DNA from: Candidatus Oxydemutatoraceae bacterium
GTDB taxonomy: Bacteria > Pseudomonadota > Gammaproteobacteria > Poriferisulfidales > Oxydemutatoraceae
Length of the DNA: 64,000 nucleotides
NCBI GenBank assembly: GCA_965220085.1
Contig: CBDCOZ010000002.1
Location: 64,001-128,000, forward strand
Direction: 5' to 3'
Shown: positions 343 through 46,734 of the stretch, one piece after another
Layout of the letters: each line of letters opens with the position of its first letter
How positions within the stretch are numbered: the stretch's first letter is position 1
Translations under genes and position numbers: made by a program
Notes under the pieces: model-generated
Databases searched by the model: none
What the model was told of the DNA's origin: nothing
What the model saw: the letters and a program-made list of their open reading frames with translations, nothing else

Positions 343-1503
343 TCACAGGCGCAACGGCATCACGACATAATCGTCGTTCCCGCCACCGTCGCCAATGATT
401 CGGATGGCATCCAGCGCGTCCTGCATTTGCAGAATGACCTTCTCCGTATCCACCGCTTTCATCACCTCGACCAGAAACCGCAGATTGAAGCCGGACATGA
501 GGTCATCCCCCTCAAAGGCCACTTCCTGCTCGACTTCCGCCGTATCGCCGCCGATAGATTCGGTCTGCAAGACGACCTTTTCACCGGAAAAGGAAAGTTT
601 CACGCTGTGGTCGTTGCGCGCCGAATCGGTCACCAGAATGGCAGCCGAGCGCATCAGCGAACTGAGCATATCTTGCCGGTCAATCGTTGCCTTGCGGGTG
701 GATTTCTGCGGGATAACACGCTGATAATCCGGAAACTTGCCGCTCAAGACTTTCGCGATAATAAAGGTATTTTCGTCAAAGATAACCTTGACTTGCCGCT
801 TGCCAATCTGAATGACGACCGGCGCATCGTCGCTGCCCCCCAACCCTTTTTCAATCTCCAGGACAAGTTGCCGCGGCAGGATGGCATCGACTTTCTCCTT
901 GCTTGTCTGCTCCACTTTCATGATGCTACGGGCGAGGCGGTGGCCATCGGTTGCAACCGCCGACAACTGGTCGCCATCGTGCTCCAGTAACAAGCCATTC
1001 AGGTAGTGCCTCGGATCGTGCTCACCCATAGAAAACGACACCTTGGCGAACATGTTCGCGAGGTCATCCTGACGCAGTGTGAGTTCGCATTGGGCCGGTT
1101 CTTCTTCCGCATCGGGAAAGCCCTCAACAGGCAAACTTTGCAACTTGTAGCGGCTTTTGTCACCCGGAAAGGTCACATCCACCTGGCACGCCATCGCCTC
1201 TTGCTCCTCATCCTCTTTTTCGAAGAAGTTAAGCGATATTTCTGGCTTTTCTGCCGAATTTCGCGCTATTTCGTACACTTTTTGGATGGGAAACAGCACT
1301 TCGGCCGGCTCCTCAACCTGAATGTTCGTGCAACGGCAACTCAACACATCGATAAAGGAACCGAAGCTGACGAAGCGACACGCCCCGTCTTCGGGAATGA
1401 TCTTGGCCATGACCTTGTGGGACTCGATGGCCTTGCCGTCGATAATCTTGCGCAAGCGCGAAAGGATGTCGACGAAGTCGGAAGTGGGTAATGTTATTCG
1501 CAT
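343..1503 (-). CDS. dnaN: DNA polymerase III beta sliding clamp
   Basis: Motifs RHYLNGLL, AVATDGHRLA, GKFPDYQRVIP and YVVMPLRL. Start chosen at ATG 1503 (MRITLP) because the ORF-track extension runs through DnaA boxes. Confidence 0.97.
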   Translation of the reverse strand: MRITLPTSDFVDILSRLRKIIDGKAIESHKVMAKIIPEDGACRFVSFGSFIDVLSCRCTNIQVEEPAEVLFPIQKVYEIARNSAEKPEISLNFFEKEDEEQEAMACQVDVTFPGDKSRYKLQSLPVEGFPDAEEEPAQCELTLRQDDLANMFAKVSFSMGEHDPRHYLNGLLLEHDGDQLSAVATDGHRLARSIMKVEQTSKEKVDAILPRQLVLEIEKGLGGSDDAPVVIQIGKRQVKVIFDENTFIIAKVLSGKFPDYQRVIPQKSTRKATIDRQDMLSSLMRSAAILVTDSARNDHSVKLSFSGEKVVLQTESIGGDTAEVEQEVAFEGDDLMSGFNLRFLVEVMKAVDTEKVILQMQDALDAIRIIGDGGGNDDYVVMPLRL

Positions 1504-1668
1504 AGTATTAATATATAGGTTATCAAGCTTATTGTTGTTATAACATGAAAAGTCTGTGGATAAAACCCCTGCGGCTTTTTCCACTGCGTTCTCTCACTCT
1601 CATCCCGTTGTGGATACCAGCTTGGATGAATTGTGAGTTGTGAGTTATGCCCGGTTTGCTCATATGTT
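1504..1668. promoter_or_regulatory. dnaA-dnaN intergenic DnaA-box cluster, candidate oriC part
   Basis: Perfect TGTGGATAA at 1555-1563, near-consensus TGTGGATAC at 1609-1617 and TTTTCCACT at ~1577, next to an AT-rich tract at ~1490-1550. Confidence 0.7.
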
Positions 1669-2991
1669 TTATGCAGTTAGTTCTTGTCGCAGGCGCATAA
1701 AAGCATTGTCAAGTTTCGGATCTTGTTTGCGAGAGATGGCCACCTTTCTGCACGCATAGAGCACCGTCGTATGGTCACGGCCGCCGAACGCTTCGCCGAT
1801 TGTCGGCAAGCTCGCCTGCGTGACATCTTTTGCAAGAGCCATGGCCATCTGCCGCGGGAAGACGATGATCTTCTTGCGGCTCTTTGACAACAAGTCGGCG
1901 ACGCGAAGATTATAAAACTGTGCGATGATCTTCTGCACATCTTCAATCGTGACCGCGCGGCGGTGCGACGCGAAGGCATCTCGCAGCGAGCTTTTAACCA
2001 ACGCCAGCGTTACCGGAGAAGCCAACGCCGTCGCGCTCGCGTACACCCGCCGCACCGCGCCTTCCAACTCGCGGATATTGGAATCAATGTTCTTCGCGAT
2101 GAAGAACGCGATATCCTGATCCATTTCCGAACCCAGGAGGGTGGCTTTGTTTTGCACGATGGCCACGCGCGTTTCAAGGTCCGGCGCTTCTATCGATTGC
2201 GTGAGTCCGCAACCGAACCGTGATCTCAACCGCTCTTGCAAACCGACGAGATCTTTCGGGTAACGATCACACGTCATAACGACTTGCTTTTTGCTTTGCA
2301 TCAGCGTGTTGAAGGTGTGAAAAAACTCTTCCTGACTTTGCTCCTTGCCGCTGAAGAACTGAACATCGTCAATGAGCAACACATCGATAGAGCGATAGAA
2401 CTTCTTGAATTTGTCCATCTTATTTTCCCGCAGCGCGCGCACCATATCGTGCACGAAGCGTTCCGAACTCATGTACAAAACGCGCGCGTTAGGATCCTTG
2501 CGCACGATTTCATTTCCGATCGCGTGCATCAAATGTGTCTTGCCAAGACCGACATCGCTGTAGAGAAAAAACGGATTCGCAACCGTGCCGGGATTGTTTG
2601 AAACTTGTTGCGCGGCAGCCTTTGCAATCTGGTTTGACTTGCCCTCGACAAAGGAATCAAGAGTCTGGTGCTGGTTCAAAAAAGAAGCCAATTTCTGCCG
2701 GTGCGACGCCTCTTCAAGGTGTTGATTATCCAGGCTTTTATCCACCTCTTTAAGCCCCTGAACAGAGACGCTCATACGCAGTTTAACCGACTTGTTTGTG
2801 GACAGTCTCAGCGTTTCTTGAATGGTTGTAAAACAGTTTTCTTTTACCCACGTCGCGATAGCTCCGTTCGGCGCGACGAGGTTCAAACTGTCATCGGCTT
2901 CGTATACTTCGAGCGGATGAACCCACATGTTCATGTCCTCTTCTTTGAGTTGACTTTCAAGTGTCTTCACACACTCTTGCCACAAATTCAT
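1669..2991 (-). CDS. dnaA: Chromosomal replication initiator DnaA
   Basis: Motifs NPFFLYSDVGLGKTHL, LLIDDVQF, SNIRELEGA and FGGRDHTTVLYA. ATG 2991 has an AAGGAGA RBS upstream. Confidence 0.98.
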   Translation of the reverse strand: MNLWQECVKTLESQLKEEDMNMWVHPLEVYEADDSLNLVAPNGAIATWVKENCFTTIQETLRLSTNKSVKLRMSVSVQGLKEVDKSLDNQHLEEASHRQKLASFLNQHQTLDSFVEGKSNQIAKAAAQQVSNNPGTVANPFFLYSDVGLGKTHLMHAIGNEIVRKDPNARVLYMSSERFVHDMVRALRENKMDKFKKFYRSIDVLLIDDVQFFSGKEQSQEEFFHTFNTLMQSKKQVVMTCDRYPKDLVGLQERLRSRFGCGLTQSIEAPDLETRVAIVQNKATLLGSEMDQDIAFFIAKNIDSNIRELEGAVRRVYASATALASPVTLALVKSSLRDAFASHRRAVTIEDVQKIIAQFYNLRVADLLSKSRKKIIVFPRQMAMALAKDVTQASLPTIGEAFGGRDHTTVLYACRKVAISRKQDPKLDNAFMRLRQELTA

Positions 2992-3567
2992 AATAAAAAT
3001 TCTCCTTAAAAGTTTGTTACTTTGTGCTGTTGTCAGGATGACAACACATGCATAGATTAAACGTAAAATGAACTTTGTCCACCCCCCTATAAAAGAGTTT
3101 GATACGCCAAGAGAAAATATTTTTTCTGTGCACAAACTGTGGAAAAAACACGTTTGCATGACCGTTTATCTTGAAAAATATACCGTTCGTCAGAAAAAAT
3201 CTTCTCACCTGATTGATTTAAATTTCATTACTGTATCCGAGAGAATTGCATCCCCCGGTTAAATGTGTTGTTAAATTGAATGTCATCACCGCACCCCAGA
3301 GTTGCGCCACCGTCTGTAAATAATCAGAGCGCCCGCCGGTTAAAAAGTTACCGGCCCCGCAGACTCAGGCAAGCGCGCCTGTGCCGTGATAAAAAACTTG
3401 ATTTTTGCCGAGGCATCTGCTTTAATCATCTGTCCGCTCCCGTTGGAGGGATGCCCAAAGCGTGGGGGCGGGAATGTGAGCGAGGCGCAACAAGGCCATA
3501 TTATAACAGGGACCCGGACTGTGGCATTTGCCAAAAACGGAGCCAGCCATTACAATCAGCGGCACTT
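2992..3567. promoter_or_regulatory. dnaA/rpmH divergent promoter region with DnaA-box-like sites (possible oriC part)
   Basis: AT-rich region with degenerate boxes TTGTCCACC ~3075, TGTGCACAA ~3127 and TGTGGAAAA ~3138. Confidence 0.55.
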
Positions 3568-3707: not shown

Positions 3708-4073
3708 TTGTCGTCAAGACACAGCGAGAAGTTTGGTCGTGAACATCGCCTGCGCAAAGCGACCGAGTACAAAACCATTTTGGACAAGCGGTCAACGAGC
3801 GACAAAACCATCGCCCGCCGATTCGTTTTTTTTGCGCGCGACAACACGCACGACACCGCCCGGCTTGGCATCGCGGTGGGAACGCGAGCGCTGAAAAGAG
3901 CCGTTCACCGCAACCGGATAAAGAGGATGGTGCGCGAAAGTTTCCGCAAAAACAGATACCGCCTGCCGGCGCGCGATTATGTCGTCATCTGCCGAGGCGG
4001 TCAGCCGCCGCGACTTCCCGGTTGTCGCGAAGCGCTGAAGTCATTCTGGGACACACAAGCGGGAGGCGCGTGA
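3708..4073 (+). CDS. rnpA: Ribonuclease P protein component
   Basis: FGREHRLRK...ARLGIAV...RAVHRNRIKRMVRESFR (RNR motif) and canonical synteny. The TTG start is approximate. Confidence 0.93.
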   Translation: MSSRHSEKFGREHRLRKATEYKTILDKRSTSDKTIARRFVFFARDNTHDTARLGIAVGTRALKRAVHRNRIKRMVRESFRKNRYRLPARDYVVICRGGQPPRLPGCREALKSFWDTQAGGA

Positions 4074-5767
4074 TGGGTAATCCGCGCCTGCTTCTGTATC
4101 TGTCGCTTGGGCTTGTCCTGTTCTTGCTTTGGACACGCTGGCAGGAGTGGAACGCTCCGCAACGTGCCGAAGAGCCGCCGCCCGTCTCGCAAGCGACGCA
4201 ACCGCCGGCGCAAGCGGAGGGAGGCGCTGTCGTCGATACGGTGCGCGATGACATGCCGAGCGCGGTCGCCGCGCGCGACGGCGAAGCGAGCGCCGCGCCG
4301 CAGCAATCGCCGCGACAATCGCAAAGCGATACGCTGGTCGTGACCACCGACTTGATGCGCGTGGAGATAGATACGCGCGGCGGAGATGTGACGAGCCTTG
4401 AGTTGTTGCAAGTGCCGATAGATTCCGAGCACAAAGACATTCCCTATCGCTTGCTTGCCGCTCGCGACCCGCGCTACATCATTCAATCGGGATTGTTGCA
4501 CGATCAAACCGGCGATGTGTCGCCGGAGGAGTTGAGCGCGCTGGCGCCGTCGCACCATGCGAACTATGAGATAGACGTATCCGAAGTGACGTTGCGCGAT
4601 GGCGCCGACACCGTGACCGCAACATTGCATTGGCGCAACGACACCGGCATCACGGTCAAAAAAGAATACGCGTTTCATCGCGGTCAATACAGTTTTGACG
4701 TGACCCACACGGTGCGCAACCGTTCGGCGACGACCTGGATCGGGCGGCAGTATCGACAGGTGCGCCGCGCCCCGCCGACCGATGAGTCGGCGCTCATCTA
4801 TACGTTTACCGGCGGCGCGTATTACGACGGCAAATACAACAAGGTCTCGTTTGAAGAGATGGACGAAGCCGCGTTGTCGCAGACGGTTCGCGGCGGCTGG
4901 GTGGCGATGTTGCAACATTACTTCTTCAGCGCGTTGCTGGCGGACACAAAAACCGACAGCGACATCTACACCCGTTCGGTGCAAGGCGACCACAGCCGGG
5001 AGTACATCATCGGCCTGCGTTCGCAAGCCTTGCGCATCGGCCCGGGCGATACGATGCAATTTGGCGGGCGCATTTTTTCCGGGCCAAAGATTCAAAACCA
5101 ACTCAGCGACATCGCGCCCGGGCTGGAGTTGGTAACCGACTACGGCATCTTCTCGGTGATTTCAAAACCGCTGTTCTGGTTGCTCGACAAATTCTTTTTG
5201 CTATCCGGCAACTGGGCGGTTGCGATCATCCTGCTGACGCTTTTGATTAAGCTCGTCTTCTACAAATTATCCGAGACAAGTTACAAATCCATGGCGCGCA
5301 TGCGCAAGTTGCAACCGAGCATCCTCGCCATGCGCGACCGCTACAAAGACGACCGTCAACAGATGCAAAAAGCGATGATGGAGTTTTACCGCAAAGAGAA
5401 GATCAACCCGCTCGGCGGCTGCCTGCCGATTCTGGTGCAGATACCGGTGTTCATCGCCCTGTACTGGGTGTTGCTGGAAAGCGTGGAGTTGCGTCAGGCG
5501 CCGTTTGTGCTGTGGATACAAGACCTCTCGGTGCGCGATCCGTATTTCGTTCTGCCCTTGCTGATGGGCGGCACGATGCTGATTCAGACCAAGTTGAACC
5601 CGACGCCGCCGGATCCGATACAGGCGCGCGTGATGATGTTGTTGCCGATCATATTCACCGCCTTCTTTGCGTTCTTCCCGGCCGGGCTGGTGCTGTACTG
5701 GCTCGTCAACAACGTTCTTTCCATTGCGCAACAGTGGGTCATCAACCGGCGGATCGCACAAGCATAG
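4073..5767 (+). CDS. yidC: Membrane protein insertase YidC
   Basis: Motifs WVAMLQHYF, DYG, SYKSMARMRKLQP, NPLGGCLPILVQIPVF and PAGLVLYWLVNN. TGATG overlap with rnpA. Confidence 0.98.
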   Translation: MGNPRLLLYLSLGLVLFLLWTRWQEWNAPQRAEEPPPVSQATQPPAQAEGGAVVDTVRDDMPSAVAARDGEASAAPQQSPRQSQSDTLVVTTDLMRVEIDTRGGDVTSLELLQVPIDSEHKDIPYRLLAARDPRYIIQSGLLHDQTGDVSPEELSALAPSHHANYEIDVSEVTLRDGADTVTATLHWRNDTGITVKKEYAFHRGQYSFDVTHTVRNRSATTWIGRQYRQVRRAPPTDESALIYTFTGGAYYDGKYNKVSFEEMDEAALSQTVRGGWVAMLQHYFFSALLADTKTDSDIYTRSVQGDHSREYIIGLRSQALRIGPGDTMQFGGRIFSGPKIQNQLSDIAPGLELVTDYGIFSVISKPLFWLLDKFFLLSGNWAVAIILLTLLIKLVFYKLSETSYKSMARMRKLQPSILAMRDRYKDDRQQMQKAMMEFYRKEKINPLGGCLPILVQIPVFIALYWVLLESVELRQAPFVLWIQDLSVRDPYFVLPLLMGGTMLIQTKLNPTPPDPIQARVMMLLPIIFTAFFAFFPAGLVLYWLVNNVLSIAQQWVINRRIAQA

Positions 5768-5781
5768 CGCTTGCGTTGCGG

Positions 5782-7348
5782 GTGTTTTATGATCGCACGG
5801 ACGAAACACGCCACTCGGATTTTGATTGTGCTGTCGGCGCTGACGCCGGCGCTCTCCGCTTGCATGAGCGATTGGCGCAACGCAGCGCTCGCGGGTGTTT
5901 TATGATCGTGCGAATGAAACACGCCGCTCGGGTTTTGATTGTGCTGTCGGCGCTGACGCCGGCGCTCTCCGCTTGCATGAGCGATTGGCGCAACGCAGCG
6001 CTCGCGAGAGTTTTATGATCGTGCGGATGAAACACGCCGCTCGGATTTTGATTGTGCTGTCGGCGCTGCCGCCGGCGCTCTCCGGCTGCATGAACGATTG
6101 GCGCAACACAGCGCTCGCAGGTGTTTTATGATCGTGCGAATGAAACACGCCGCTCGGATTTTGATTGTGCTGTCGGCGCTGCCGCCGGCGCTCTCCGCTT
6201 GCATGAGCGATTGGCGCAACGCAGCGCTCGCGAGAGTTTTATGATTGTGCGGATGAAACACACCGCTCGGATTTTGATTGTGCTATTGGCGCTGACACCG
6301 GCGCTCTCCGGTTGCATGAGCGATTGGCGCAACGCAGCGCTCGCGAGAGTTTTATGATCGTGCGGATGAAACACGCCACTCGGATTTTGATTGTGCTGTC
6401 GGCGCTGACGCCGGCGCTCTCCGCTTGCATGAGCGATTGGCGCAACACAGCGCTCGCGGGTGTTTTATAATCGTGCGAATGAAACACGCCGCTCGGATTT
6501 TGATTGTGCTGTCGGCGCTGATGCCGGCGCTCTCCGCTTGCATGAGCGATTGGCGCAACGCAGCGCTCGCGAGAGTTTTATGATCGTGCGGATGAAACAC
6601 GCCGCTCGGATTTTGATTGTGCTGTCGGCGCTGCCGCCGGCGCTCTCCGGCTGCATGAACGATTGGCGCAACACAGCGCTCGCAGGTGTTTTATGATCGC
6701 GCGAATGAAACACGCCACGCGGATTTTGATTGTGCTGTCGGCGCTGATGCCGGCGCTCTCCGCTTGCATGAGCGATTGGCGCAACGCAGCGCTCGCGAGA
6801 GTTTTATGATTGTGCGGATGAAACACACCGCTCGGATTTTGATTGTGCTATTGGCGCTGACACCGGCGCTCTCCGGTTGCATGAGCGATTGGCGCAACGC
6901 AGCGCTCGCGAGAGTTTTATGATCGTGCGGATGAAACACGCCACGCGGATTTTGATTGTGCTGTCGGCGCTGATGCCGGCGCTCTCCGCTTGCATGAGCG
7001 ATTGGCGCCAATAGCGCTCGCAGGTGTTTTATAATCGTGCGGATGAAACACGCCACTCGGATTTTGATTGTGCTATTGGCGCTGACACCGGCGCTCTCCG
7101 CTTGCATGAGCGATTGGCGCAACGCAGCGCTCGCAGGTGTTTTATGATCGTGCGGATGAAACATGCCGCTCGGATTTTGATTGTGCTGTCGGCGCTGATG
7201 CCGGCGCTCTCCGCTTGCATGAGCGACTGGCGCAACGCAGCGCTCGCGGGTGTTTTATGATCGCACGGACGAAACACGCCACTCGGATTTTGATTGTGCT
7301 GGCGGCGCTGACGCCGGCGCTCTCCGCTTGCATGAGCGATTGGCGCAT
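5782..7348 (+). repeat. Tandem array of 14 x ~113 bp copies of the 5' end (lipoprotein signal) of the DUF3750 gene
   Basis: Unit gttttatgatcgtgcggatgaaacacgcc...gattggcgcaacgcagcgctcgc recurs every 113 bp from ~5784 to ~7252 with mosaic SNPs. The last copy continues into the gene. Confidence 0.97.
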
Positions 7349-7814
7349 GGCATCGCGCGAGTCAATCGGCATCGCACCGCTTGCCGCCGACGAACCGGAG
7401 GCGGTGGTGCAAGTGTATGCGGCGGCGACGTTCGGATGGCGCGGCTGGTTTGCCGATCACACATGGGTCGCGACCAAGTCGGCGCAAGCCGAGCAGTACA
7501 CGGTCTATGAAGTGCTCGGCTGGCGGATCTATCGCGGCGACCCGATCGTGCGGATTGCGCAGGACTTGCCGGATCGCAAATGGTTCGGCTCCGAACCGAG
7601 AATCCTGATCGATCTGCGCGGCGCGGTGGCGGAGGCGGTCGCGGAAAAAGTGGACGAAGCCGCGCGCAGCTATCCGTATCACAACAAGTACCGCATGTGG
7701 CCGGGCCCAAACAGCAACACCTTCACCGCCTGGATCGCACACCAAGTCCCGGAGTTAGGGCTGGACTTGCCGCCGCGCGCCATCGGCAAGTCCTACCCGT
7801 TGGAGGCACACTAA
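7257..7814 (+). CDS. DUF3750-family putative lipoprotein
   Basis: Lipobox LSAC, VQVYAA..FGWRGWFADHTW, WFGSEP and YRMWPGPNSNTF. Confidence 0.8.
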   Translation: MIARTKHATRILIVLAALTPALSACMSDWRMASRESIGIAPLAADEPEAVVQVYAAATFGWRGWFADHTWVATKSAQAEQYTVYEVLGWRIYRGDPIVRIAQDLPDRKWFGSEPRILIDLRGAVAEAVAEKVDEAARSYPYHNKYRMWPGPNSNTFTAWIAHQVPELGLDLPPRAIGKSYPLEAH

Positions 7815-7832: not shown

Positions 7833-9200
7833 GTGAGCCGCCTGCCAGACAACGCGACGATTGCGGCGGTTGCCACGCCCGCGGGCTACGGCGGTGTCGG
7901 CATCGTGCGCATCAGCGGCGCGCGCGCGCGCACAATCGGTTTGCAACTGACCGCGCGACGCGCGCTGCAAGACCGCCGCGCGACCTTCTGCCGCTTCATC
8001 GCCGCCGACGGCGAGCCGATAGACGAAGGCATCGCCCTGCTGTTTGCGCGACCCCGCAGTTACACCGGCGAAGATGTGTTTGAAGCGCACGCCCACGGCG
8101 GCCCGGTCGTGTTAGAAATGCTGCTCGCCCGCGTCCTTGAATTGGGCGCGCGAATGGCCGAACCCGGCGAGTTCAGCCGGCGCGCGTTTCTCAACGGCAA
8201 GCGCGACCTCGCCCAACTGTCGGCGGTTGCCGACTTGATTAACAGCGCCAGCCAACAGGCCGCGCGCAGCGCCCGCCGTGTCGTGCAAGGCGAGTTCTCC
8301 GCGCAGGTGCGGGTCGTGTGCGAGGAGCTCAAGTCGTTGCGGGCGCTGATCGAGGCGACGCTGGATTTTCCCGACGAGGAAGACGTAACGGAAGACAACA
8401 CCCTGCAACAAACCTTGTGCGCCCGCGTCAAGGCGCTGGCACAGGCGGTGGCCGAGTTAGAACGGCGGGCGACGGGCGGGATGCGCTTGCACGAGGGCCT
8501 GGAGTTGGTCATCGCCGGCCAACCCAATGTCGGCAAGTCCAGTTTGCTCAACTGCCTCGCGCAGCGCGAGACGGCCATCGTCTGCGATGCGCCGGGGACG
8601 ACACGCGATGTCGTGCGGTGCGATATTTTGATCGACGGCATGCCGATGCGCGTTCTGGACACCGCAGGGCTTCGCCCGGGCGCCGATGCGGCGGAGCGCG
8701 AAGGCATTCGCCGGGCGCATCAAGCGATGGAGAGCGCCGATGTGGTGGTCGTCTTGGCGGATGCGACGGCGGGGCTTGGCGCGGCGGGGCGCGAGTTGCT
8801 GGATAAGTTGGCCGCCGCCGGCGCCAATGTGATCACCGCGTTGAATAAGAGCGACCTGCTCAAAGCGCCGCCGCCGGAGTCGGACACATTATATGTGTCT
8901 GCCAAAACCGGCGCCGGCATCGCTGCGCTGTGTGCGGCGATCAAAGAGAAAGCGGGGGTTGTCGATCTCGGCGAGGATACGCTGGTCGTGCAACGGCGGT
9001 ATCTGGATGCGTTGAGTCATGCGCGCAAAAACTTGGCGGCGCTCGCGCACAATCTTACGACAAGCGATGCCGATGTAGCGCTTGACATGCTCGCTCAAGA
9101 CTTGCGCGACACGCATCAAAGTTTGTCCGCGCTGCTCGGCGAGTACGCCACCGAGGACATGCTGGGCGATATCTTCTCGCGGTTTTGCATCGGCAAATAA
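7833..9200 (+). CDS. mnmE: tRNA modification GTPase MnmE (TrmE)
   Basis: Motifs TIAAVATPAG.GGVGIVRISG, GQPNVGKSS, GTTRD, DTAG, NKSD and C-terminal FSRFCIGK. Confidence 0.98.
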   Translation: MSRLPDNATIAAVATPAGYGGVGIVRISGARARTIGLQLTARRALQDRRATFCRFIAADGEPIDEGIALLFARPRSYTGEDVFEAHAHGGPVVLEMLLARVLELGARMAEPGEFSRRAFLNGKRDLAQLSAVADLINSASQQAARSARRVVQGEFSAQVRVVCEELKSLRALIEATLDFPDEEDVTEDNTLQQTLCARVKALAQAVAELERRATGGMRLHEGLELVIAGQPNVGKSSLLNCLAQRETAIVCDAPGTTRDVVRCDILIDGMPMRVLDTAGLRPGADAAEREGIRRAHQAMESADVVVVLADATAGLGAAGRELLDKLAAAGANVITALNKSDLLKAPPPESDTLYVSAKTGAGIAALCAAIKEKAGVVDLGEDTLVVQRRYLDALSHARKNLAALAHNLTTSDADVALDMLAQDLRDTHQSLSALLGEYATEDMLGDIFSRFCIGK

Positions 9201-10345
9201 GTCGTCACGGCGCGGGCCGGCGGATGCGCAGATACGCCGGATGGCGCGGCAAGCCGTTGCGCGTCAAGCCCTGATAGGGGGAGTTGTCAATCTCGGCGAG
9301 GACGCGCTGGTCGTGCAACGGCGGTATCTGGATGCGTTGAGTCATGCGCGCAAAAACTTGGCGGCGCTCGCGCACAATCTTACGACAAGCGATGCCGATG
9401 TAGCGCTTGACATGCTCGCTCAAGACTTGCGCGACACGCATCAAAGTTTGTCCGCGCTGCTCGGCGAGTACGCCACCGAGGACATGTTGGGCGATATCTT
9501 CTCGCGGTTTTGCATCGGCAAATAAGTCGTCACGGCGCGGGCCGGCGGATGCGCAGATACGCCGGATGGCGCGGCAGGCCGTTGCGCGTCAAGCCCTGAT
9601 AGGGGGAGTTGTCAATCTCGGCGAGGACGCGCTGGTCGTGCGGGGGCGGTATTTGGATGCGCTCGGTCATGCGCGCAAAAACTTGGCGGCGCTCGCGCAC
9701 AATCTTACGACAAGCGATGCCGATGTAGCGCTTGACATGCTCGCTCAAGACTTGCGCGACACGCATCAAAGTTTGTCCGCGTTGCTCGGCGAGTACGCCA
9801 CCGAGGACATGTTGGGCGATATCTTCTCGCGGTTTTGCATCGGCAAATAAGTCGTCACGGCGCGGGCCGGCGGATGCGCAGATACGCCTCGCGGTTTTGC
9901 ATCGGCAAGTAAGCCGTCACGGTGCGGGCCGGCGGATGCGCAGATACACTGGATGGCGCGGCAGGCCGTTGCGCGTCAAACCCTGATAGCGGTAAGTAAT
10001 CGTCGCGCCGACCGGCGCTGGTCGTGCGGGGGCGGTATTTGGATGCGCTCGGTCATGCGCGCAAAGACTTGGCAGCGCTCGCGCACAAACTCACGACAAG
10101 CGATGCCGGGTTAGCGCTTGACATGCTCACGCAAGACTTGCGCGACACCCATCAAAGTTTGTCCGCGTTGCTCGGCGAGTACGCCACCGAGGACATGTTG
10201 GGCGATATCTTCTCGCGGTTTTGCATCGGCAAGTAAGCCGTCACGGCGCGGGCCGGCGGATGCGCAGATACACCGGATGGCGCGGCAGGCCGTTGCGCGT
10301 CAAACCCTGATAGCGGTAAGTAATCGTCGCGCCGACCGGCGGCGG
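8954..10345. repeat. Nested tandem duplications of the convergent mnmE 3' end plus ligase 3' end (~325 bp unit)
   Basis: The mnmE tail (...FCIGK*) reappears ending at 9525, 9850, ~9912 (short) and 10236, each followed by the reverse-strand ligase tail (YQGLTRNGLPRHP.YLRIRRPAP). Confidence 0.95.
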
Positions 10346-11140
10346 GTCTTTGCGTTGCGCATCCGACAGGCCGCTGCCGATGCGAAAGACGCGCCCTTGC
10401 GGGGTGCGCACCCGCAGCGAGCCGGTCATGCCGGCGTATTTGCCGCGCCCCGGGCGGTGGCCGATAACGGTCGCTTCGGCATCATAAAACGGTTTGTATT
10501 TGAGCAAGTCTCTGCTGCGCCCGCTTTGATGATAGGAGTCTATCCGCCGCAACATCAGCCCTTCGCCGCCGCCGGCAACGGTCTCGTCAAAGAGCGCTTG
10601 CAACGCTTCGCGCGAGGCGACGGGCCGCTGTCGCACGACTTGCCAGAAAGCGTTTTTACTGGCGGCGACAAGCGCGCGCAGCGCCGCCTGCCGCTGCCGA
10701 AATGTTCCGGCGTGTGCGGGCAGGTCAAACACCATGAAACGAATCTCGCGCCAGCCATCGTGCGGTTGCTGTTTGCGCACGACCGAGACGGTCGCCTCAA
10801 ACTGCCCGCGCCCCAACCACAACTCACCGTCCAGCGCTGTGGCGGGAAGGTCGGCGACGAACCAGTGCGGCGCGGCGAACACATTGCCGCTGCGCGAGCG
10901 CAATCGTTGCCCGTCCCACACCGCGCGCACGCCATCGTATTTTTCACTGACCCAATACTCGGCGAGGTCCACCGTGTTGTCGTCGGGGCGATAGGCGTCG
11001 GCGAGCGACACTTCGGGCGCTGCTTTGGTCGCATCCGCCGCGTCCGCAACGGGGTGCGGTATCGCAACGCCGACGGCGAAGATCGCGCAGGCAATCAGGT
11101 TTGTCGTGCGCGTGAAAGTAACTGTAAAAATGTTCATCAT
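10241..11140 (-). CDS. Minimal ATP-dependent DNA ligase with N-terminal signal-like sequence (Lig E type)
   Basis: Motif I SEKYDGVRA, LDGELW, GGEGLMLR, LLKYKP and OB-fold IGSGLSD. Hydrophobic N-terminus ending VADA. Start uncertain (11137-11218). Confidence 0.9.
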   Translation of the reverse strand: MMNIFTVTFTRTTNLIACAIFAVGVAIPHPVADAADATKAAPEVSLADAYRPDDNTVDLAEYWVSEKYDGVRAVWDGQRLRSRSGNVFAAPHWFVADLPATALDGELWLGRGQFEATVSVVRKQQPHDGWREIRFMVFDLPAHAGTFRQRQAALRALVAASKNAFWQVVRQRPVASREALQALFDETVAGGGEGLMLRRIDSYHQSGRSRDLLKYKPFYDAEATVIGHRPGRGKYAGMTGSLRVRTPQGRVFRIGSGLSDAQRKDPPPVGATITYRYQGLTRNGLPRHPVYLRIRRPAP

Positions 11141-11397
11141 GGCCTTATAAAACACCATTACAAGGCCTGCGCCGCAACCAATATGCCGAAAGAGCCATTT
11201 TTTCCGATAAGCGGTCATGCATCATGCCGAAGCATTGCGGGGTTCCGGCTACAACACGATGCAATAGCAACACCGGCTACGGCATCAACGGTTTCTATGA
11301 AAGCGGGGATGTCTGGCGCAAGCAAAACGGTGCGCCAGATACGTGCGGAAAGTTTGCGGTTGCCATCGGGTTGCGCACTCGTCAGCTTCCAAGGAGC

Positions 11398-18051: not shown

Positions 18052-19010
18052 TGCCGTACCCCGACATCAGGCCGGAGCATCATCGCGCCGAGGGCGACGG
18101 GCGTATCGTTAGCATCGCGCTGAACGGCGGCGCCGAGGGGGGCGCTGTGGCGCTTGGGCCGGAACTTTTGAACGGCGTTGGAAGGCAGTTTGAAAACTGG
18201 TATGCGACGCCCGCCGCGCCGGTGCGCGCGCATGAGAGCGGCGTGCGCTATGCGGCGAACGCGGACATGGCCTGCGGGTTTTTGCCGCTGCGGCGGGGGC
18301 AGCCGGTGGCCGAGACGACCGCGCGGTTTTATCGGGCGCTGTTTGCGATTCTCAAAGAGTGCGGCGACTTCGCGCCGCTTCGGGTCTGGCATTACCTGCC
18401 GGATTTGAGCGGCGCGGGCGAGCCGACGCCGTATCGGATGTTTTGCCGCGCGCGGGCGGCTGTCATCGGCGCGGTGAGTCCCGGGATGCTGTGCGCGGCG
18501 ACTGTCATCGGCAGCGGCGCGGAGCACGGCCTGCTGTATTTTCTGGGCGGCGAGCGGGGCGGGCGCGTGATTGATAACCCGCGCCAGACCAATCCGAGCG
18601 ATTATCCGGCGCAGTATGGCGACCCGCCGCCGCTGTTTGCGCGCGCCGTGTTGCACCGCAGCGCTGCTGCCTGCCGACTGTATATCTCAGGCACCGCGAG
18701 CATCGTCGGCCATCGCTCGTGCCATGCGGGCGACGCTGTGGCGCAACTGGATGAGGTGGCCGACAACCTGCAGGCGTTGCTGGCGGCTGCGGCTGAGGCG
18801 GAACCCGCGTTTGCCGACAAGACCTTGCGCGACCTGCGCAGCGCCCGCCTCTACCTGAAGCGCCGCGCGGATTATGACGCTGTTGCCCGCGCCTTGCCCG
18901 CCCGCTTCGGTGCGCTGCCTGACCTCAAAATCTTTCGCGGCGAGATCTGCCGCCCCGAGTTGCTGGCGGAGATGGAGGGGATGATTGAGCAGCGGCGGGA
19001 GGGGACGTGA
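18051..19010 (+). CDS. FkbO/Hyg5/XanB2-family chorismatase-like protein
   Basis: LRVWHY, NPRQ...YP.QYG..PP.FARA, ISGTASIVGH and ICRPELL.E.EG. Confidence 0.8.
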   Translation: MPYPDIRPEHHRAEGDGRIVSIALNGGAEGGAVALGPELLNGVGRQFENWYATPAAPVRAHESGVRYAANADMACGFLPLRRGQPVAETTARFYRALFAILKECGDFAPLRVWHYLPDLSGAGEPTPYRMFCRARAAVIGAVSPGMLCAATVIGSGAEHGLLYFLGGERGGRVIDNPRQTNPSDYPAQYGDPPPLFARAVLHRSAAACRLYISGTASIVGHRSCHAGDAVAQLDEVADNLQALLAAAAEAEPAFADKTLRDLRSARLYLKRRADYDAVARALPARFGALPDLKIFRGEICRPELLAEMEGMIEQRREGT

Positions 19011-19620
19011 TGCGGTGCGCGGATTATGACGCTGTTACCCGCGCCCTGCCCGCCCGCTTCGGTGCGCTGCCGAATCTTAAAATCTTTCGCGGCGAGATCT
19101 GCCGCCCCGAACTGCTGGCGGAGATGGAGGGGATGATTGAGTGCTGGCGGGAGGGGGCGTGATGCGGTGCGCGGATTATGACGCTGTTGCCCGCGCCTTG
19201 CCCGCCCGCTTCGGTGCGTTGCCGGAGCTTAAAACCTTTCGCGGCGAGATCTGCCGCCCCGAGTTGCTGGCGGAGATGGAGGGGATGATCGAGCAACGGC
19301 GGGATGTGATGCGGTGTGCGGATTATGACGCTGTTCCCCGCGCCTTGCCCGCCTGCTTCGGTGCGTTGCCGGAACTTAAAATCTTTCGCGGCGAGATCTG
19401 CCGCCCCGAACTGCTGGTGGAGATGGAAGGGATGATCGAGCACCGCCGGGAGGGGACGTGATGCGGTGCGCGGATTATGACGCTGTTACCCGCGCCTTGC
19501 CCGCCCGCTTCGGTGCGCTGCCGGAACTTAAAATCTTTCGCGGCGAGATCTGCCGCCCCGAACTGCTGGTGGAGATGGAAGGGATGATCGAGCACCGCCG
19601 GGAGGGGACGTGATGCGGTG
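18867..19620 (+). repeat. Five tandem ~150 bp copies of the chorismatase-like 3' end (first is the gene itself)
   Basis: gcggattatgacgctgtt at ~18867, 19019, 19171, 19318 and 19470. Confidence 0.95.
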
Positions 19621-19706
19621 CGGTGTGCGAGAGATTTGCGATGCCACATGCCATGACCGTTGTCACCGAGTTGGGGTGATGCGGTGCGCCCGACGGGGGG
19701 CTTGCG

Positions 19707-21456: not shown

Positions 21457-22917
21457 TCATTGCTTGTTATCCTTCGGGTATGCCAGCGCCAGACAGCGCT
21501 CGGCAATCACCTTGAGCTTTTTGCTGAGGGGGTTTTTGTTGGCAGGCACGCGGGCGGCGATGATGTTTGTTAGGCCCCGCACCCCGTCTCGCGTGTACCA
21601 CACGGCGATAATAATAAGCGCAAAGCCCAGCGCCGTATCCAGCAACGCGTCTGTCCACGGCCCTTCGTTGAGGGATAGCTGAAGCAGCCAATAACCGCCC
21701 GCAACCACGATGGCGCCGACATAGCCCGCTACGAGCGCGGTGAGCGCGACCCAAGCGCAGATGTTGCCGGTATGTTTTAGTATGCGTTTGGCGTTGCTTC
21801 CTTCGTCGTAGCCGCGGAGGGCTTTTTGGCGTTGTTTTAGCTCGGCTTTGGCAGCCTCTCTGTTGTCGTAAGCCGGAGTGTATTCCGGGTCTATCTTCAG
21901 GGCCTTGCTGTAGTCTTTGATGGCGTCTTGGTATCGTTGTATCCTCGCTTTGCAGGTGCCTCTGATGTTGTAATTCGAGGCATCTTTCGGGTCGCGCTCT
22001 AGGGCTTTGTCAAAGTCTTTGATGGCCGCTCGGTATTGTTTGAGCGCGGTGTTGGCGGTGCCTCTGTTGCTGTATGTTTCGGCATCGTCCGCTCCAAGCT
22101 CTATCGCTTTGTCAAAGTCTTTGACGGCTGCTCGGTATTGTTTTAGCACGGTGTTGACGGCGCCTCTGTTGCTGTACGTCTCGGCATCGTTCGGGTCAAA
22201 CTCTATCGCTTTGTCGAAGTCTTTGATGGCCGCTCGGTATTGTCTTAGACTGATTTTGATGAGGGCTCTGTTGTTGTAAGGCGCGGCATCTTGCAGACAA
22301 AGTTCTGTGGCTTTGTCGAAGTCTTTGATGGCTTCTTGGTATTGTTTTAGCCTGCTTTTGCAGGTGCCTCGGTTGCTGTATGCCGCGGCGTATTCCGGGT
22401 TGATCTCCAGAGCCTTGTCGTAGTCTTGGAGGGCTTCTTGGTATTGCCTTGTCGCGGCTTTGACAATGCCTCTGCAGTTGTACGCCTTGGCGTATTCGGG
22501 GTTAATCTCAATGGCTTTGTCGTAGTCTTGGATGGCTTCTTCGTATTGTTTTAGCGAGGCTTTGGAGGCGCCTCTGTTGATGCAGGCTGTGGCATCCTCC
22601 GGATCAATTTCTATGGCTTTGTCGAAGTCTTTGATGGCCTCTTGGTGCTGTTCCAGATCGGCTTTGGCGAGGCCTCTGTTGTTGTAAACCACGGCATTTT
22701 CCATGTTGATTTCCAGAGCGATGCCGTAGTCTGCGACGGCCTCTTGGTATTTTTTTTGCTCGGTTTTGTCGGTGCCTTTGCTGTTGTACGCCTTGGCGTT
22801 TTTCAGATTGATCTCTATGGCTTGATCGAAGAGTCGGATGGCCTCTTGGTACTGCTCCGCACCGTAGGCTTTGTTTCCCCGTTCAAAAAGAGCGCGGCTT
22901 TTTTCGTCTTTGAACAT
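21457..22917 (-). CDS. TPR-repeat protein with C-terminal 2 TM segments
   Basis: ~10 TPRs (AY.NRG..K..L.QY..AI.D(F/Y)DKAIE), no signal peptide, two hydrophobic helices at the C-terminus. Confidence 0.9.
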   Translation of the reverse strand: MFKDEKSRALFERGNKAYGAEQYQEAIRLFDQAIEINLKNAKAYNSKGTDKTEQKKYQEAVADYGIALEINMENAVVYNNRGLAKADLEQHQEAIKDFDKAIEIDPEDATACINRGASKASLKQYEEAIQDYDKAIEINPEYAKAYNCRGIVKAATRQYQEALQDYDKALEINPEYAAAYSNRGTCKSRLKQYQEAIKDFDKATELCLQDAAPYNNRALIKISLRQYRAAIKDFDKAIEFDPNDAETYSNRGAVNTVLKQYRAAVKDFDKAIELGADDAETYSNRGTANTALKQYRAAIKDFDKALERDPKDASNYNIRGTCKARIQRYQDAIKDYSKALKIDPEYTPAYDNREAAKAELKQRQKALRGYDEGSNAKRILKHTGNICAWVALTALVAGYVGAIVVAGGYWLLQLSLNEGPWTDALLDTALGFALIIIAVWYTRDGVRGLTNIIAARVPANKNPLSKKLKVIAERCLALAYPKDNKQ

Positions 22918-23218
22918 TTGAATACCTCCTGAGGTCAGCAGGCGCTACCGGCGGCGGTCGGCGCCGCGCATTTGTAGCGCGATTAATTATGGCGGCTAAT
23001 TGTACCACCAGTAATGTGCCTGTCGGCAAGCGCATATGACGAACGGCAAAAGTGAGGGTTTATAAGCCGTAGCGCCGCAATTTGCTTGGCGGCGAGTGGC
23101 CGCGGTCGCCTGCAAAAGTGAGATGTTATAGCCCGCCGCGATCGCCCAGATTGTCCGAAAAAGCGAGGGTGTCATGACCCGTAGTCGTGCAAGATGCCTG
23201 TTGCCGAGTGCCCAGATT

Positions 23219-23370
23219 ATCCGGACATCGTGATGAAGCGCGGAACCGCTGTGCGCTTTCGTGACTCCCGCCGCTTCGGTATCGTCCTGCGGTTGTCGGG
23301 ATGAAGACTTCGCCGGCGAGCATTTGCAGTGCGCAAGTTTTTATTGTTCCCGCTGCCAGCGCTAGTGAAG
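23219..23370 (+). pseudogene. Degenerate internally deleted mutM fragment
   Basis: ggacatcgtgatgaag...cgccgcttcggta...agtttttattgttcccgctgccagcgct matches mutM 19985-20060 and 20490-20520. Confidence 0.85.
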
Positions 23371-23424
23371 GGAGCGGTATCCGAGGCAGCCCGGCGCTTC
23401 GCTTAGTCGCACAGGCGAACTCTG

Positions 23425-24366
23425 CTACTCGCTATCCGCACCCATGTTGCGGCCAAATGTTTTTGCCCATGTTATTGGACGAGAAAAGTTGCCGGGCGGC
23501 TCTTTGAATGTGCTTTGAATCAAGGCCTCCGGTATGCCACTCGGTGCGAGGAAGGGGTAAAGCGCCGGATCGCTTTTGCCCCCGCTGCGCTCATAGTGTT
23601 TGGTCACAGCCCGCTTGGAGCGGATATCCTCGCGCAGCGCCAGAGCATTAGTTTTGTCTTTGTCCGCCGAATGCGCCCAAAGATAAAACGGCACCAGTAC
23701 CAAAGTAGCCACCACGATAAAGGGAAGGATGCTGTGGGAGCCTTGGTCTTTCATCATTGCAATGCCGACCCATGTTGCCACACCGTAGAGGATTATAGAA
23801 GCAATAATCAAACATATTATAGAGTAGCGATGATACTTGGCTTTCGATTTATGGTCTTCTTCCATCTCTTCCATAATGGCATCGTAATCTGATGTTTCGC
23901 CTATGGCTTTTTCTGCGGCGCTCGGCTTGTCTTGCGACTCTCCCTCAAACTTTTGTTGTTGCTCCTTTAACTGTTCTTCATATTTTTGCGTTATTTTTTT
24001 CTGTTTGTCTTGTGTCAATAATAGTGTTTGTGCTACCGCTCTGTTGTGGATTGCATCAGAGAAACCCGGGTTAAGCTCTAGGGCCTTATCGTAGTCTTGA
24101 ATGGCTTCTCTGTATTGCTCTAACGTAACTTTGGTGGCGCCTCTGTTGTTGTAAGCATCGGCATATTCCGGGTTAAGCTCTATGGCCTTATCGTAGTCTT
24201 GGATGGCCTCTTGGTATTGTTTTAGATCAGCTTTGGCAATGCCTCTGTTGTTGTAAGCCTCGGCATCTTCCGGGTTGAGCTCTATGACCTTATCGTAGTC
24301 TTGGATGGCTTCTCGGTATTGCTTTAGCTTGGTTTCGGCACCTTTCGGGTTAGGCTCTATGGTCAT
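23425..24366 (-). pseudogene. C-terminal part of a split TPR-coiled-coil-2TM gene
   Basis: TPRs plus the family tail ADKDK..ALALREDIRSKRA, with a frameshifted end. It lacks the family start/leader, which lies at 25187. Confidence 0.7.
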
Positions 24367-24458
24367 ATCGCAGTCTTGGATGGCTTTTTAGTATTGTTTC
24401 AGAAACGCTTTGGCGGCGACTCTGTTGTTGTAAGCATCGGCATATTCCGGGTTGGGCT

Positions 24459-25187
24459 CTAGGCTAGGGCCTTATCGTAGTCTTGAATGGTTTCTCTGTA
24501 TTGCTCTAACGTAACTTTGGTGGCGCCTCTGTTGTTGTAAGCATCGGCATATTCCGGGTTAAGTTGTATGGCCTTATCGTAGTCCCGGATGGCTTCTTGG
24601 TATTGTTTTAGCCTGGCTTTGGCGACCCCTCTGCTGTTGTAAGCCTCGGCATATTTTGGGTTGAGTTGTATGGCCTTATCGTAGTCTTGGATGGCTTCTT
24701 GGTGTTGTTTTAGCTTAGTTTTGGCAAGGCCCCTGTTGGTGTAAGTTTGGGCATTGTCCGGTTCAATCTCTATGGCTTTGTCGTAGTCTCGGATGGCATC
24801 TTGGTATTGTTCTAGCGCGGCTTTGGCGACCCCTCTGTTGTTGTAAGCATCGGCAAGTTTTGGGTTAATCTCTATGGCTTTGTCGTAGTCTCGGATGGCG
24901 TCTTGGTATTGTTCTAGCGCGGCTTTGGCGTTGCCTCTGTTGTTGTAAAGATAATGGAGCAAGGTGAGTTCCGGCTTAAGCGCCAAAGCTTTGTCGTAGT
25001 CTTGGATGGCTTCTTGGTATTGTTTTAGCGCGGCTTTGGCGTCGCCCCGGACACAGTAAGCATCGACATGTTTCGAGTTGCGCGTTATGACCGCATCAAG
25101 AAGTCCTATGACTTCTTGATACTGTCCTGCCATGTAGGCGTCGCATCCTTCCTTAAAAAGATCTTGGTTTGTTTTGTCGTTGGTCAT
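24459..25187 (-). pseudogene. N-terminal part of the split TPR gene
   Basis: Family start MTNDKT with the shared leader. The last TPR (24465-24560) duplicates 24080-24180, followed by a stop and frameshifted TPR debris. Confidence 0.7.
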
Positions 25188-31829: not shown

Positions 31830-31945
31830 TTGAATACCCTCTCAGGTTAGCAGGTGCTACCGGCGGCCAGCATAGCACGTTTGTAGCACGATAGTATGGT
31901 GGCAATTGTACCACCTGCAATGTGCCCATCGCGACCGCCTACGCC

Positions 31946-31990
31946 CATCCGGACATCGTGATGAAGAACGGAATCGCTGTGCTTTCGCGA
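31946..31990 (+). pseudogene. Short mutM-derived remnant
   Basis: catccggacatcgtgatgaagaacggaatcgctgtgctttcgcgac. Confidence 0.7.
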
Positions 31991-32045
31991 CGAAAAATAA
32001 GACATATAGCTGGGGTGACTCGCTTAGTCGCACAAGTGAACTCCG

Positions 32046-33338
32046 CTACTTGCTATCGCCCTTCTTGTCCTCGCTACGGCGGTCAAGCGTTTCCGCTACC
32101 GCTTGAACAACGCTGGTGGGTTGCTCTTTGGATGTGCCCAGAATCAAGGCCGCTGTGCTACTGTGTGTGTGGTGGTCAAACAGGCGTAGCAATGCTTGGT
32201 TGCTTTCGCCCGCACTACGCTCGTAGTATTTAGTCAAAATGGTCAAAGCCCGCTTGGAGCGAATATCCTCGCGCAGTGCCAGAGCACGAGCTTTATCTCT
32301 GTCTGCGGAACGCACCCACAGATAAAAAGGCACCAGTATCAAAGTAGCCATTGTGATAAAGGGGAGGATGATACTATAGGAGTCGGTGGGGGTTACAAGC
32401 TTGTCAATTGCAATCATTTCATAGCCTAGGTATGCCACTACCCCATAGGTAGCAAGAGACATGAAAATGGAGAGTGCAAGAACCGCAAGATACCCCCGAC
32501 TTTTATTTTTATAGTCTCTTTCCATCTCTTCCAGAGTATCCTCATAATGTAGTAGCTCCTTAAAATTTTCTTCTTTATCTAATAATCTAGCTTGCAGCTC
32601 TTTGTCAAACTCCTCCTGTTGCTCCTCCAGCTGCTTTTCATATTTTTGCGTTATTTTTTTCTGCTCAAATAGTGCCCGTGATGCCATCCGCCTGCTGTGC
32701 GCTTCGGCAAGGTTCGGGTTCAGTTCTATGGCTTTGTCATAATCTTGGATGGCTTCTTGGTATTGGTTTAGGGCGGTTTTGATGATGCCTCTGTTGCCGT
32801 AAGCTTCGGCATTTTCTGGGTTCAGTTTTATGGCCTCATCGTAGTCTTGGATAGCCTCTCGGTATTGTTTTAGCTTAGCTTTGGCGAGGCCTCTGTTGCT
32901 GTAAGCACCGGCAAATTTCGGGTTCAGTTTTATGGCTTCATCGTAGTCTTGAATGGCTTCTTGGTATTGCTCTAGCTTATCTTTGCTAGTGCCTCTGTTG
33001 TTATAAGCCTTGGCATCTTCCGGGATGAGCTCTATGGTTTTATCGTAGTCTTGAATGGCTTCTTGGTATTGCTCCAGCCCGGCTTTGGCGAGGCCTCTGT
33101 TGCCGTAAGCTTCGGCATATTCCGGCTTAAGTTCTATGGCTTTATCGTAGTCTTGGATGGCTTCTTGGTATTGGTTTAGGTTAGCTTTGGCAACGCCTCT
33201 GTTGTTGTAAGCCTCGGCGAATTCTGGATCAAACTCTATGACCTTGCTAAAAAGCTCTATGGCTTCTTGATATTGTCCTGCGTCGTAGGCGACGCGTCCT
33301 CCCTCAAAAAAATCTTGGCTTGTTTCGTCGTCGCCCAT
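32046..33338 (-). CDS. TPR-coiled-coil-2TM protein (~6 TPRs)
   Basis: Paralog of 29823-31829 with a different first TM segment and loop. Confidence 0.92.
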   Translation of the reverse strand: MGDDETSQDFFEGGRVAYDAGQYQEAIELFSKVIEFDPEFAEAYNNRGVAKANLNQYQEAIQDYDKAIELKPEYAEAYGNRGLAKAGLEQYQEAIQDYDKTIELIPEDAKAYNNRGTSKDKLEQYQEAIQDYDEAIKLNPKFAGAYSNRGLAKAKLKQYREAIQDYDEAIKLNPENAEAYGNRGIIKTALNQYQEAIQDYDKAIELNPNLAEAHSRRMASRALFEQKKITQKYEKQLEEQQEEFDKELQARLLDKEENFKELLHYEDTLEEMERDYKNKSRGYLAVLALSIFMSLATYGVVAYLGYEMIAIDKLVTPTDSYSIILPFITMATLILVPFYLWVRSADRDKARALALREDIRSKRALTILTKYYERSAGESNQALLRLFDHHTHSSTAALILGTSKEQPTSVVQAVAETLDRRSEDKKGDSK

Positions 33339-36790: not shown

Positions 36791-36825
36791 TGGTTTTTTT
36801 CTCTGACAGGATTCTATCACCTTTC

Positions 36826-46713: not shown

Positions 46714-46734
46714 GCCTCGCACTGATATGTGCGC

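Follow-up and report, generated by a model that had tools for sequence, protein, structure and literature searches.

Why should thirteen close copies of the beginning of one gene, each with its own signal peptide and lipobox, stand head to tail in front of that gene? The question is raised by the interval between yidC and a DUF3750 lipoprotein gene in a Candidatus Oxydemutatoraceae bacterium (Gammaproteobacteria; assembly GCA_965220085.1), on contig CBDCOZ010000002.1, of which we analysed positions 64,001 to 128,000 of the forward strand. This 64,000-nucleotide stretch is the window to which coordinates refer below unless another genome or contig is named. An earlier note, made from the sequence alone, had taken the copies to be a chain of translationally coupled mini-lipoprotein open reading frames (ORFs) that could yield about 13 lipopeptides. 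We consider it probable, at roughly 0.7, that the array is instead a minisatellite born locally in an array-prone genome, that its mini-ORFs are by-product decoys of the downstream gene's start, and that their reading frame lets ribosomes terminate on each next start codon.

Tandem Repeats Finder (TRF) describes the array with a period of 113 bp, 13.9 copies, 91% matches and a score of 2608. Anchored on the start motif, it divides into 14 unit starts, which are spaced by 113 bp twelve times and by 112 bp once. Its parts are as follows.

5778..7347, plus strand: tandem array with a 113-bp unit and 13.9 copies (TRF, unit alignment and a BLAST comparison, Basic Local Alignment Search Tool, with the genome)
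5789..7260, plus strand: chain of 13 decoy mini-ORFs, each with a signal peptide and lipobox ahead of a 13-residue tail
5789, 5902, 6015, 6128, 6241, 6354, 6467, 6580, 6693, 6806, 6919, 7031 and 7144, plus strand: mini-ORF starts of units 1 to 13
6467..6469, plus strand: start codon of unit 7, changed from ATG to ATA, with the same change in unit 12 (7031-7033)
6919..7014, plus strand: unit 11, of 112 bp, with a 1-bp deletion, clustered substitutions and an in-frame TAG that leaves an ORF of 31 amino acids (aa)
5902..7030, plus strand: higher-order duplication, in which units 2-6 (5902-6466) are repeated as units 7-11 (6467-7030)

Intact 38-codon ORFs that begin with ATG are present in 10 of the 13 units. 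The other three are damaged, two by loss of the start codon (units 7 and 12, whose first codon is ATA and in which an ATG remains at codon 5) and one by a frameshift (unit 11). Using a lipoprotein signal-peptide rule (charged n-region, h-region and [LVI][ASTVI][GAS]C) applied by eye and as a regular expression, we found that all 13 units read as precursors of the kind cleaved by signal peptidase II (SPase II), in which a basic n-region and a hydrophobic core are followed by a lipobox (LSAC in nine units and LSGC in four). Units vary at signal-peptide positions, with T, P or M at residue 19, S or L at residue 16, and A or G in the lipobox. At the unit junctions each mini-ORF ends in a 4-nt overlap with the start that follows, reading ATGA at 11 of 13 junctions and ATAA at the other two, which is the arrangement of stops and starts found in translationally coupled ORF chains. 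The anatomy given in the earlier note is thereby confirmed with respect to the 113-bp unit and its 38-aa ORF, the stop that overlaps the next ATG, the retained n-region, h-region and lipobox, and the 1-bp deletion that ends one peptide early.

The origin of the unit becomes apparent from the genes on either side, all of which have the same orientation.

4022..5767, plus strand: yidC (Pfam PF14849, YidC_periplas, and PF02096, 60KD_IMP), taken as the longest ORF with its start unrefined
7257..7814, plus strand: DUF3750 lipoprotein gene of 185 aa (Pfam PF12570, E 4e-50), the first 90 nt of which are unit 14
7833..9200, plus strand: mnmE (Pfam), downstream of the DUF3750 gene

The DUF3750 protein is a full-length family member, scoring 170.2 bits against a cut-off of 25 and covering profile positions 1-128 of 128 (PF12570). 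Each unit consists of the 21-nt spacer between yidC and the DUF3750 gene, followed by the first 90-93 nt (about 30 codons) of that gene, and the TAG stop of yidC lies 21 nt upstream of the first unit's ATG. The suggestion that the units are a duplicated lipoprotein signal peptide is thus correct, the original being the genuine start of the DUF3750 gene in unit 14. When two units were compared with the whole genome by BLAST, 15 of 15 high-scoring segment pairs fell inside the array and none elsewhere. Among 18 homologues of DUF3750 in other organisms, nine carry a conserved DWR(T)ASRES motif directly after a lipobox, and the signal peptide is therefore native to the family. The duplication breakpoint cuts this motif after DWR (DWR|TASRES), and the next eight residues in each decoy are junction sequence. 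Because the unit tail resembles the 3' end of yidC plus the spacer, this near-repeat may have served as microhomology for the founding duplication. The TAG of unit 11 may be a relic of the yidC stop, and hence an ancestral state; the similarity is short.

Within the family, yidC adjoins mnmE in all 17 genomes that have an mnmE match, with 3-233 nt between the aligned ends and DUF3750 absent there. Because yidC abuts mnmE in every one of these relatives, the DUF3750 gene is, on the evidence of gene order, a lineage-specific insertion into a conserved pair, and the array is younger still. With this DUF3750 query, matches were found in none of 18 same-family genomes and in one of 22 from the same order. 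The earlier note had proposed a search of relatives for the same array; no array covers the gene start in any of 18 DUF3750 loci from other organisms. Scans of metagenome and genome contigs gave 7 and 10 loci, respectively, from diverse phyla, whose protein identity is 61% at most, and none of these has the array. The distribution of DUF3750 is patchy, with the best matches (45-61% identity) in Gammaproteobacteria, Alphaproteobacteria, and Bdellovibrio-like and Geobacter-like metagenome-assembled genomes; about half of these relatives have a lipobox and the others a plain signal or anchor. The wider gene order is dnaA (minus strand), rpmH, rnpA, yidC, array, DUF3750 and mnmE. The G+C fraction is 0.45-0.53 in the dnaA region and the dnaA-rpmH spacer (window 1500-3500) versus 0.56-0.67 in neighbouring genes.

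The units also retain a record of how the array grew. Two pairs of units are identical (3 and 8, 5 and 10). At a lag of five, units differ by 4.5 on average versus 7.9-10.1 at other lags, and units 2-6 are 97.3% identical to units 7-11. Given the minimum at lag five, the identical pairs and the block identity, we conclude from the alignment that a 565-bp block of five units was re-duplicated recently. The two edge units, unit 1 (5789-5901) and unit 14 (7257-7346), differ at only one of 90 columns and share four states that are absent from interior units. At one of these positions the edge units have ACG where interior units carry a second ATG, and for this reason the second ATG must be considered derived. 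The earlier note had reported that copies with ATAA retain a stop and a second ATG (reading MKH); ATAA is indeed found at two junctions, but the second ATG arose by an ACG to ATG change that is confined to interior units and absent from the native gene. We count 26 substitution events among units, including 21 transitions, and 16 of the 26 are G>A or C>T. The start codon changed once, and that change is present in two units.

If the mini-ORFs were maintained as genes, their frame should show it. We therefore redistributed the 26 substitution events randomly over the unit, with the type of each event preserved. In the mini-ORF frame there are 11 synonymous, 15 nonsynonymous and 0 stop changes versus neutral expectations of 8.0, 17.3 and 0.7 (P = 0.11 for at least 11 synonymous changes). 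When all six frames are compared, an antisense frame scores highest (12 synonymous changes, P = 0.06), and the mini-ORF frame comes second (P = 0.10). The substitutions fit neutrality, there is no purifying selection specific to the mini-ORF frame, and by this measure the mini-ORFs do not behave as real genes. Conservation of the lipobox cysteine had been put forward as a check on function. The residue is intact in all 13 units, but this is uninformative because 26 events over 113 columns place only about 0.7 expected hits on any codon.

The predicted products gave no better indication of a function. The lipopeptides of about 14 residues had been described as amphipathic, but the 13-residue tail that follows the cysteine has a helical hydrophobic moment of only 0.11, and 92% of shuffled tails score higher. 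The mature tail is not amphipathic as a helix. Searches of the mini-peptides against Pfam returned no match at E values up to 10, and one sub-threshold NCBIfam match (E 0.17), to the signal-sequence part of LptM, was rejected as generic signal-peptide similarity. At the RNA level, the array has no Rfam match (E up to 0.1), and its fold is not more stable than that of shuffled sequence (z-score +1.1), which gives no indication of a structured RNA. The genome does encode lgt and lspA, so that decoys, if translated, could in principle be processed by these enzymes. Any lipopeptides made in this way would be by-products, and a status as selected products is not supported. We suggest that the decoys should not be annotated as lipoprotein genes without expression evidence.

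An explanation for the array without reference to its peptides is offered by the rest of the genome (2.49 Mb in 3 contigs), which holds 352 tandem arrays at a TRF score of at least 80, and 278 of these have a period of at least 40. If long-period high-identity arrays are defined as those that reach that score with a period of 40 or more and matches of 88% or more, we count 186, which occupy 85.8 kb, or 3.4% of the genome. The 113-bp array ranks fourth among them by score and fourth by copy number, and with 91% matches it is more diverged than the median array (95%). When genes are called crudely, as greedy longest ORFs, these arrays fall into four classes.

56 of 186: arrays inside genes, 45 of them with a period of 0 mod 3
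61 of 186: arrays copying only a gene tail
49 of 186: arrays copying a gene start
20 of 186: intergenic arrays

The density of such arrays differs widely among the genera of the family.

G000 (this genome), whole genome: 74.6 per Mb
G009 (another genus of the family), 1.4 Mb sampled (tiles L035-L044 and L092-L151): 95.7 per Mb
G001, 200 kb sampled: 5 per Mb
G015, 200 kb sampled: 0 per Mb
G003, 200 kb sampled: 15 per Mb

Array richness is lineage-specific, in that two genera of the family are rich and three other genera are poor.

What a start-copying duplication leaves behind depends on the length of its unit. The stop/start overlap in the 113-bp array exists because the native start reads ATGA and because 113 is 2 mod 3. 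The other two length classes would be harmful here, since one fuses all units in frame and the other reads about 78 codons across the next start. A benign frame outcome would be expected by chance about one time in three. Genome-wide, 35% of crude gene starts have an A at position +4, which leads to an expectation of about 12% for exact overlap, and we observed 9 among 53 start-copying rows.

The periods of the other start-copying arrays are likewise uneven. In this genome, periods of 0, 1 and 2 mod 3 occur 10, 15 and 24 times among all start-copying arrays, and 5, 3 and 16 times among those with about three or more copies (P = 0.0009). This copy cut-off was chosen post hoc, and G009 was the pre-stated replication at the same cut-off. 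There the start-copying arrays number 5, 6 and 13 (13/24, P = 0.028), after 25 of 134 arrays within 1.5 kb of a tile edge had been dropped, and the corresponding counts are 8, 9 and 4 for tail-only arrays and 4, 2 and 1 for intergenic arrays. When pooled, periods of 2 mod 3 make up 29 of 48 start-copying arrays versus 26 of 72 tail-only plus intergenic arrays, classes without this bias (Fisher one-sided P = 0.007). These counts, obtained with crude gene calls, constitute modest and replicated evidence that frame may affect which start-copying arrays persist or grow. The bias among start-copying arrays would therefore imply that decoys are translated.

Taken together, these observations suggest the following history. 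A founding tandem duplication, probably promoted by microhomology or replication slippage, would have copied the spacer and the first 30 or so codons of the DUF3750 gene. Unequal recombination or slippage then expanded the array to 13 extra units, including the recent re-duplication of the five-unit block, in a lineage that makes or tolerates such arrays at an exceptional rate. The array could persist because a duplication that straddles a gene boundary leaves both flanking genes whole. Each copy forms a decoy mini-ORF because the native ribosome-binding context, start codon and lipoprotein signal peptide are all copied with it. We infer that ribosomes can terminate and restart down this chain, and that the 1.5-kb insert would in this way stay translated. 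Rho, which is encoded in the genome, loads onto untranslated RNA, according to PMC12548453. A translated insert would thus spare DUF3750 and mnmE from Rho-dependent polarity, and frame compatibility probably helped the 113-bp array survive and grow.

Several results weigh against this account of a by-product array shaped by its frame. First, a plain neutral clock does not explain why the edge units are nearly identical while the interior is diverged. Interior units have a mean of 8.6 pairwise differences per 113 columns, from which about 6.9 differences are expected for the edge pair under one clock, and only one is observed (Poisson P = 0.008 for one or fewer). Conversion between the edges, or a faster-changing (hypermutable) interior, is a possible cause of this likeness. 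Second, two direct tests of a translational filter gave results at chance level. Of 21 co-directional junction arrays, 7 have a decoy ORF that ends at a copy of the upstream gene's stop, where one third is expected (P = 0.58), and a rule by which all such arrays would be in-phase fusions did not hold up across the genome. Termination no later than the following start holds for 24 of 53 actual frames versus 58 of 106 alternative frames. Both tests rely on crude calls of genes and starts (greedy longest ORFs). Third, the non-significant synonymous excess points to weak constraint (a ratio of nonsynonymous to synonymous rates, dN/dS, of about 0.63 from counts), and the lipoboxes are intact in 13 of 13 units, with only two changes inside the lipobox, both of them permitted Ala to Gly replacements.

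Fourth, no cause of array-proneness was found in gene content when the rich genomes (G000 and G009) were compared with the poor ones (G001, G015 and G003), although five genomes make this a weak test. The genes mutS, mutL, xseA, uvrD, rho and dnaQ and the DNA polymerase I (Pol I) 5'-nuclease are present in all five. Among the same genomes, recJ occurs only in G009 and G003, a full-length recQ only in G001, and an ATP-dependent ligase only in G000 and G001, and a second 5'-nuclease is missing only from G009.

Among the other explanations, we regard as unlikely, though the most probable of them, the proposal that the array is a contingency locus or copy-number tuner. On this proposal unit number would control the share of the yidC transcript and of its ribosome flux that reaches DUF3750 and mnmE, and slippage would allow this level to vary in the population. 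The array does lie within an apparent single operon, with a promoter-like site at 3528-3556, and a scan of the plus strand found no promoter-like or terminator-like site inside the array or from yidC to mnmE. The re-duplication of the five-unit block demonstrates that copy number changed recently, and a second array is present on the 3' end of mnmE. However, a change in copy number cannot switch the frame of the genuine gene on or off, and the presence of 186 arrays across the genome favours a general mutational process over regulation specific to this locus.

A stronger form of the frame argument seems to us distinctly improbable. It holds that start-copying arrays in this lineage are kept only if their frame relays ribosomes and so shields downstream genes from Rho, and that this array would, as a side effect, supply the envelope with up to 12 variant mini-lipopeptides with a possible function, for example at the host interface.

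More doubtful again is the proposal that the array is a selected lipopeptide factory, in which units are translated and processed by Lgt and LspA to release lipopeptides of about 14 residues with a function of their own. The intact lipoboxes and the ten intact ORFs agree with this proposal, as do the presence of lgt and lspA and the slight, non-significant synonymous excess. Opposed to it are the lack of frame-specific selection (11:15 versus a neutral 8.0:17.3, P = 0.11, with an antisense frame doing equally well), the damage to three of 13 units by start loss or frameshift, a tail that is not amphipathic, and the outcome of the Pfam and NCBIfam searches. Moreover, the tail is junction sequence made by a duplication that cuts a conserved motif, the array is private to this genome among the loci scanned, and it is one of 49 start-copying arrays among 186. 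On these grounds we do not accept the earlier view that about 13 lipopeptides are the selected product of the locus. Small lipoproteins encoded side by side are not without precedent. The entericidin A/B locus of E. coli consists of adjacent, very small lipoprotein genes with an SPase II signal peptide, and its two genes are diverged and conserved. The decoys differ from entericidins in that the 13 of them are recent and nearly identical copies, which show no signal of selection, match no family and have a non-amphipathic tail.

We find it very improbable that the array is a reservoir of alternative signal peptides, from which recombination between units and gene swaps variants onto the DUF3750 protein, since units 14 and 1 are the least diverged pair (1/90) and the gene is thus not sampling interior variants. 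Units do vary at signal-peptide residues and recombination within the array is evident, but there is no apparent benefit, and arrays are frequent genome-wide. The idea that the array or its copy number is a repeat-assembly error is just as hard to credit, even though contigs built from short words are interrupted within the array and none of the records runs across the whole of it, for the units carry distinct variants in an ordered higher-order pattern, and six array unitigs of run X1 have a depth of 30-38 per occurrence versus 23-32 in single-copy flanks (support that is not independent, as X1 is probably the source sample of the genome). The comparison with reads covered contigs of one study and a Hi-C run and gave neither joints nor variants; five Hi-C reads matched at 90-95%, with only part of their length on the stretch, and so come from other organisms.

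Other repeats were seen in the window, elsewhere in this genome and in G009. A second junction array (8954-10271), whose units are 325 and 386 bp long, contains repeated copies of roughly the final 80 codons of mnmE, the extra tail copies having 93-96% identity, together with the tail of a convergent gene for an ATP-dependent DNA ligase (10241-11218, minus strand). G009 has its own, independent 208-bp array of six units on the mnmE 3' end (L030 2749-3997), which makes two amplifications of this gene end within the family. Another junction duplication in G000 is located at C3:133724-134111, where partial second matches to the tails of uvrD and lspA adjoin the full genes. A 77-bp unit is shared by two arrays, at 36824-36981 (2.1 copies) and 48342-48870 (6.9 copies), with 97-98% match, and is thus a dispersed repeat family, unlike the 113-bp unit. 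Further high-identity arrays lie at 18865-19622 (152 bp, five copies), 50149-50904 (251 bp, three copies, 99% match) and 46725-46988 (40 bp, 5.7 copies). Runs of 102-bp and 108-bp units with 70-85% identity occur in apparent minus-strand genes at 21820-25046, 30504-33218, 35377-36176 and 60172-60767; judged from the period alone, these suggest protein repeats of 34 or 36 residues (TPR- or Sel1-like).

A literature search at the level of search listings, with supplements excluded, found no description of tandem amplification of a lipoprotein signal peptide. By analogy, the nearest described system appears to be the MIRU-VNTR locus (MIRU, mycobacterial interspersed repetitive unit; VNTR, variable number tandem repeat). 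According to PMC12548453, the ORF of a MIRU-VNTR unit in mycobacteria is coupled to the downstream start by a 4-nt overlap, an arrangement thought to keep the effect on expression of the downstream gene to a minimum. Both systems place short tandem units between co-oriented genes, and both have the 4-nt overlap, here as ATGA at 11 of 13 junctions and ATAA at two. MIRUs are dispersed over many loci and apparently mobile, whereas the 113-bp unit was made from a local junction, has 0 copies elsewhere, and has an ORF copied from the signal peptide of the downstream gene itself. The array also resembles pairs that use termination-reinitiation at ATGA overlaps (PMC12548453), in that the mini-ORF stop overlaps the next start by 4 nt. 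It differs in that the putative coupling is between decoy copies of one start and not between genes for partner proteins.

Two further comparisons concern the mutational process. In microhomology-mediated tandem duplication, as described in bioRxiv 10.64898/2026.02.28.708716, tandem duplication of a single-copy segment is followed by expansion, much as proposed here. However, the founding junction of this array (91% identity) is not readable with certainty, and three relatives have a far lower density of long-period arrays than this genome. In Portiera, an endosymbiont of whiteflies, a burst of intergenic tandem repeats, mostly 7-bp microsatellites, coincides with the disappearance of dnaQ, mutL and further genes for replication and repair (PMC3673631). 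That case is similar to ours in being a lineage-specific burst of tandem repeats in one symbiont branch that is absent from a sister lineage (PMC3673631). It differs in that the units described here are 40-500 bp in length, and in that mutS, mutL, dnaQ, xseA, uvrD and the Pol I 5'-nuclease are present.

On its own, the 113-bp array is a curiosity, and it looks like a by-product of a duplication-prone genome rather than a purpose-built peptide factory. It nevertheless illustrates how a tandem duplication that crosses a gene boundary yields translatable mini-genes equipped with a signal peptide and a lipobox, and such duplications are one of the ways in which small peptides that are secreted or lipidated could newly originate. 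In our view the pattern at the level of the genome, including its frame bias, is more interesting than the array itself. The larger point is that two genera of this family carry 75-96 arrays per Mb versus 0-15 in three sister genera, without obvious loss of repair genes. If the excess of periods of 2 mod 3 among start-copying arrays holds with proper annotation, these genomes would represent a natural experiment on the limits that translation sets to the survival of duplications.

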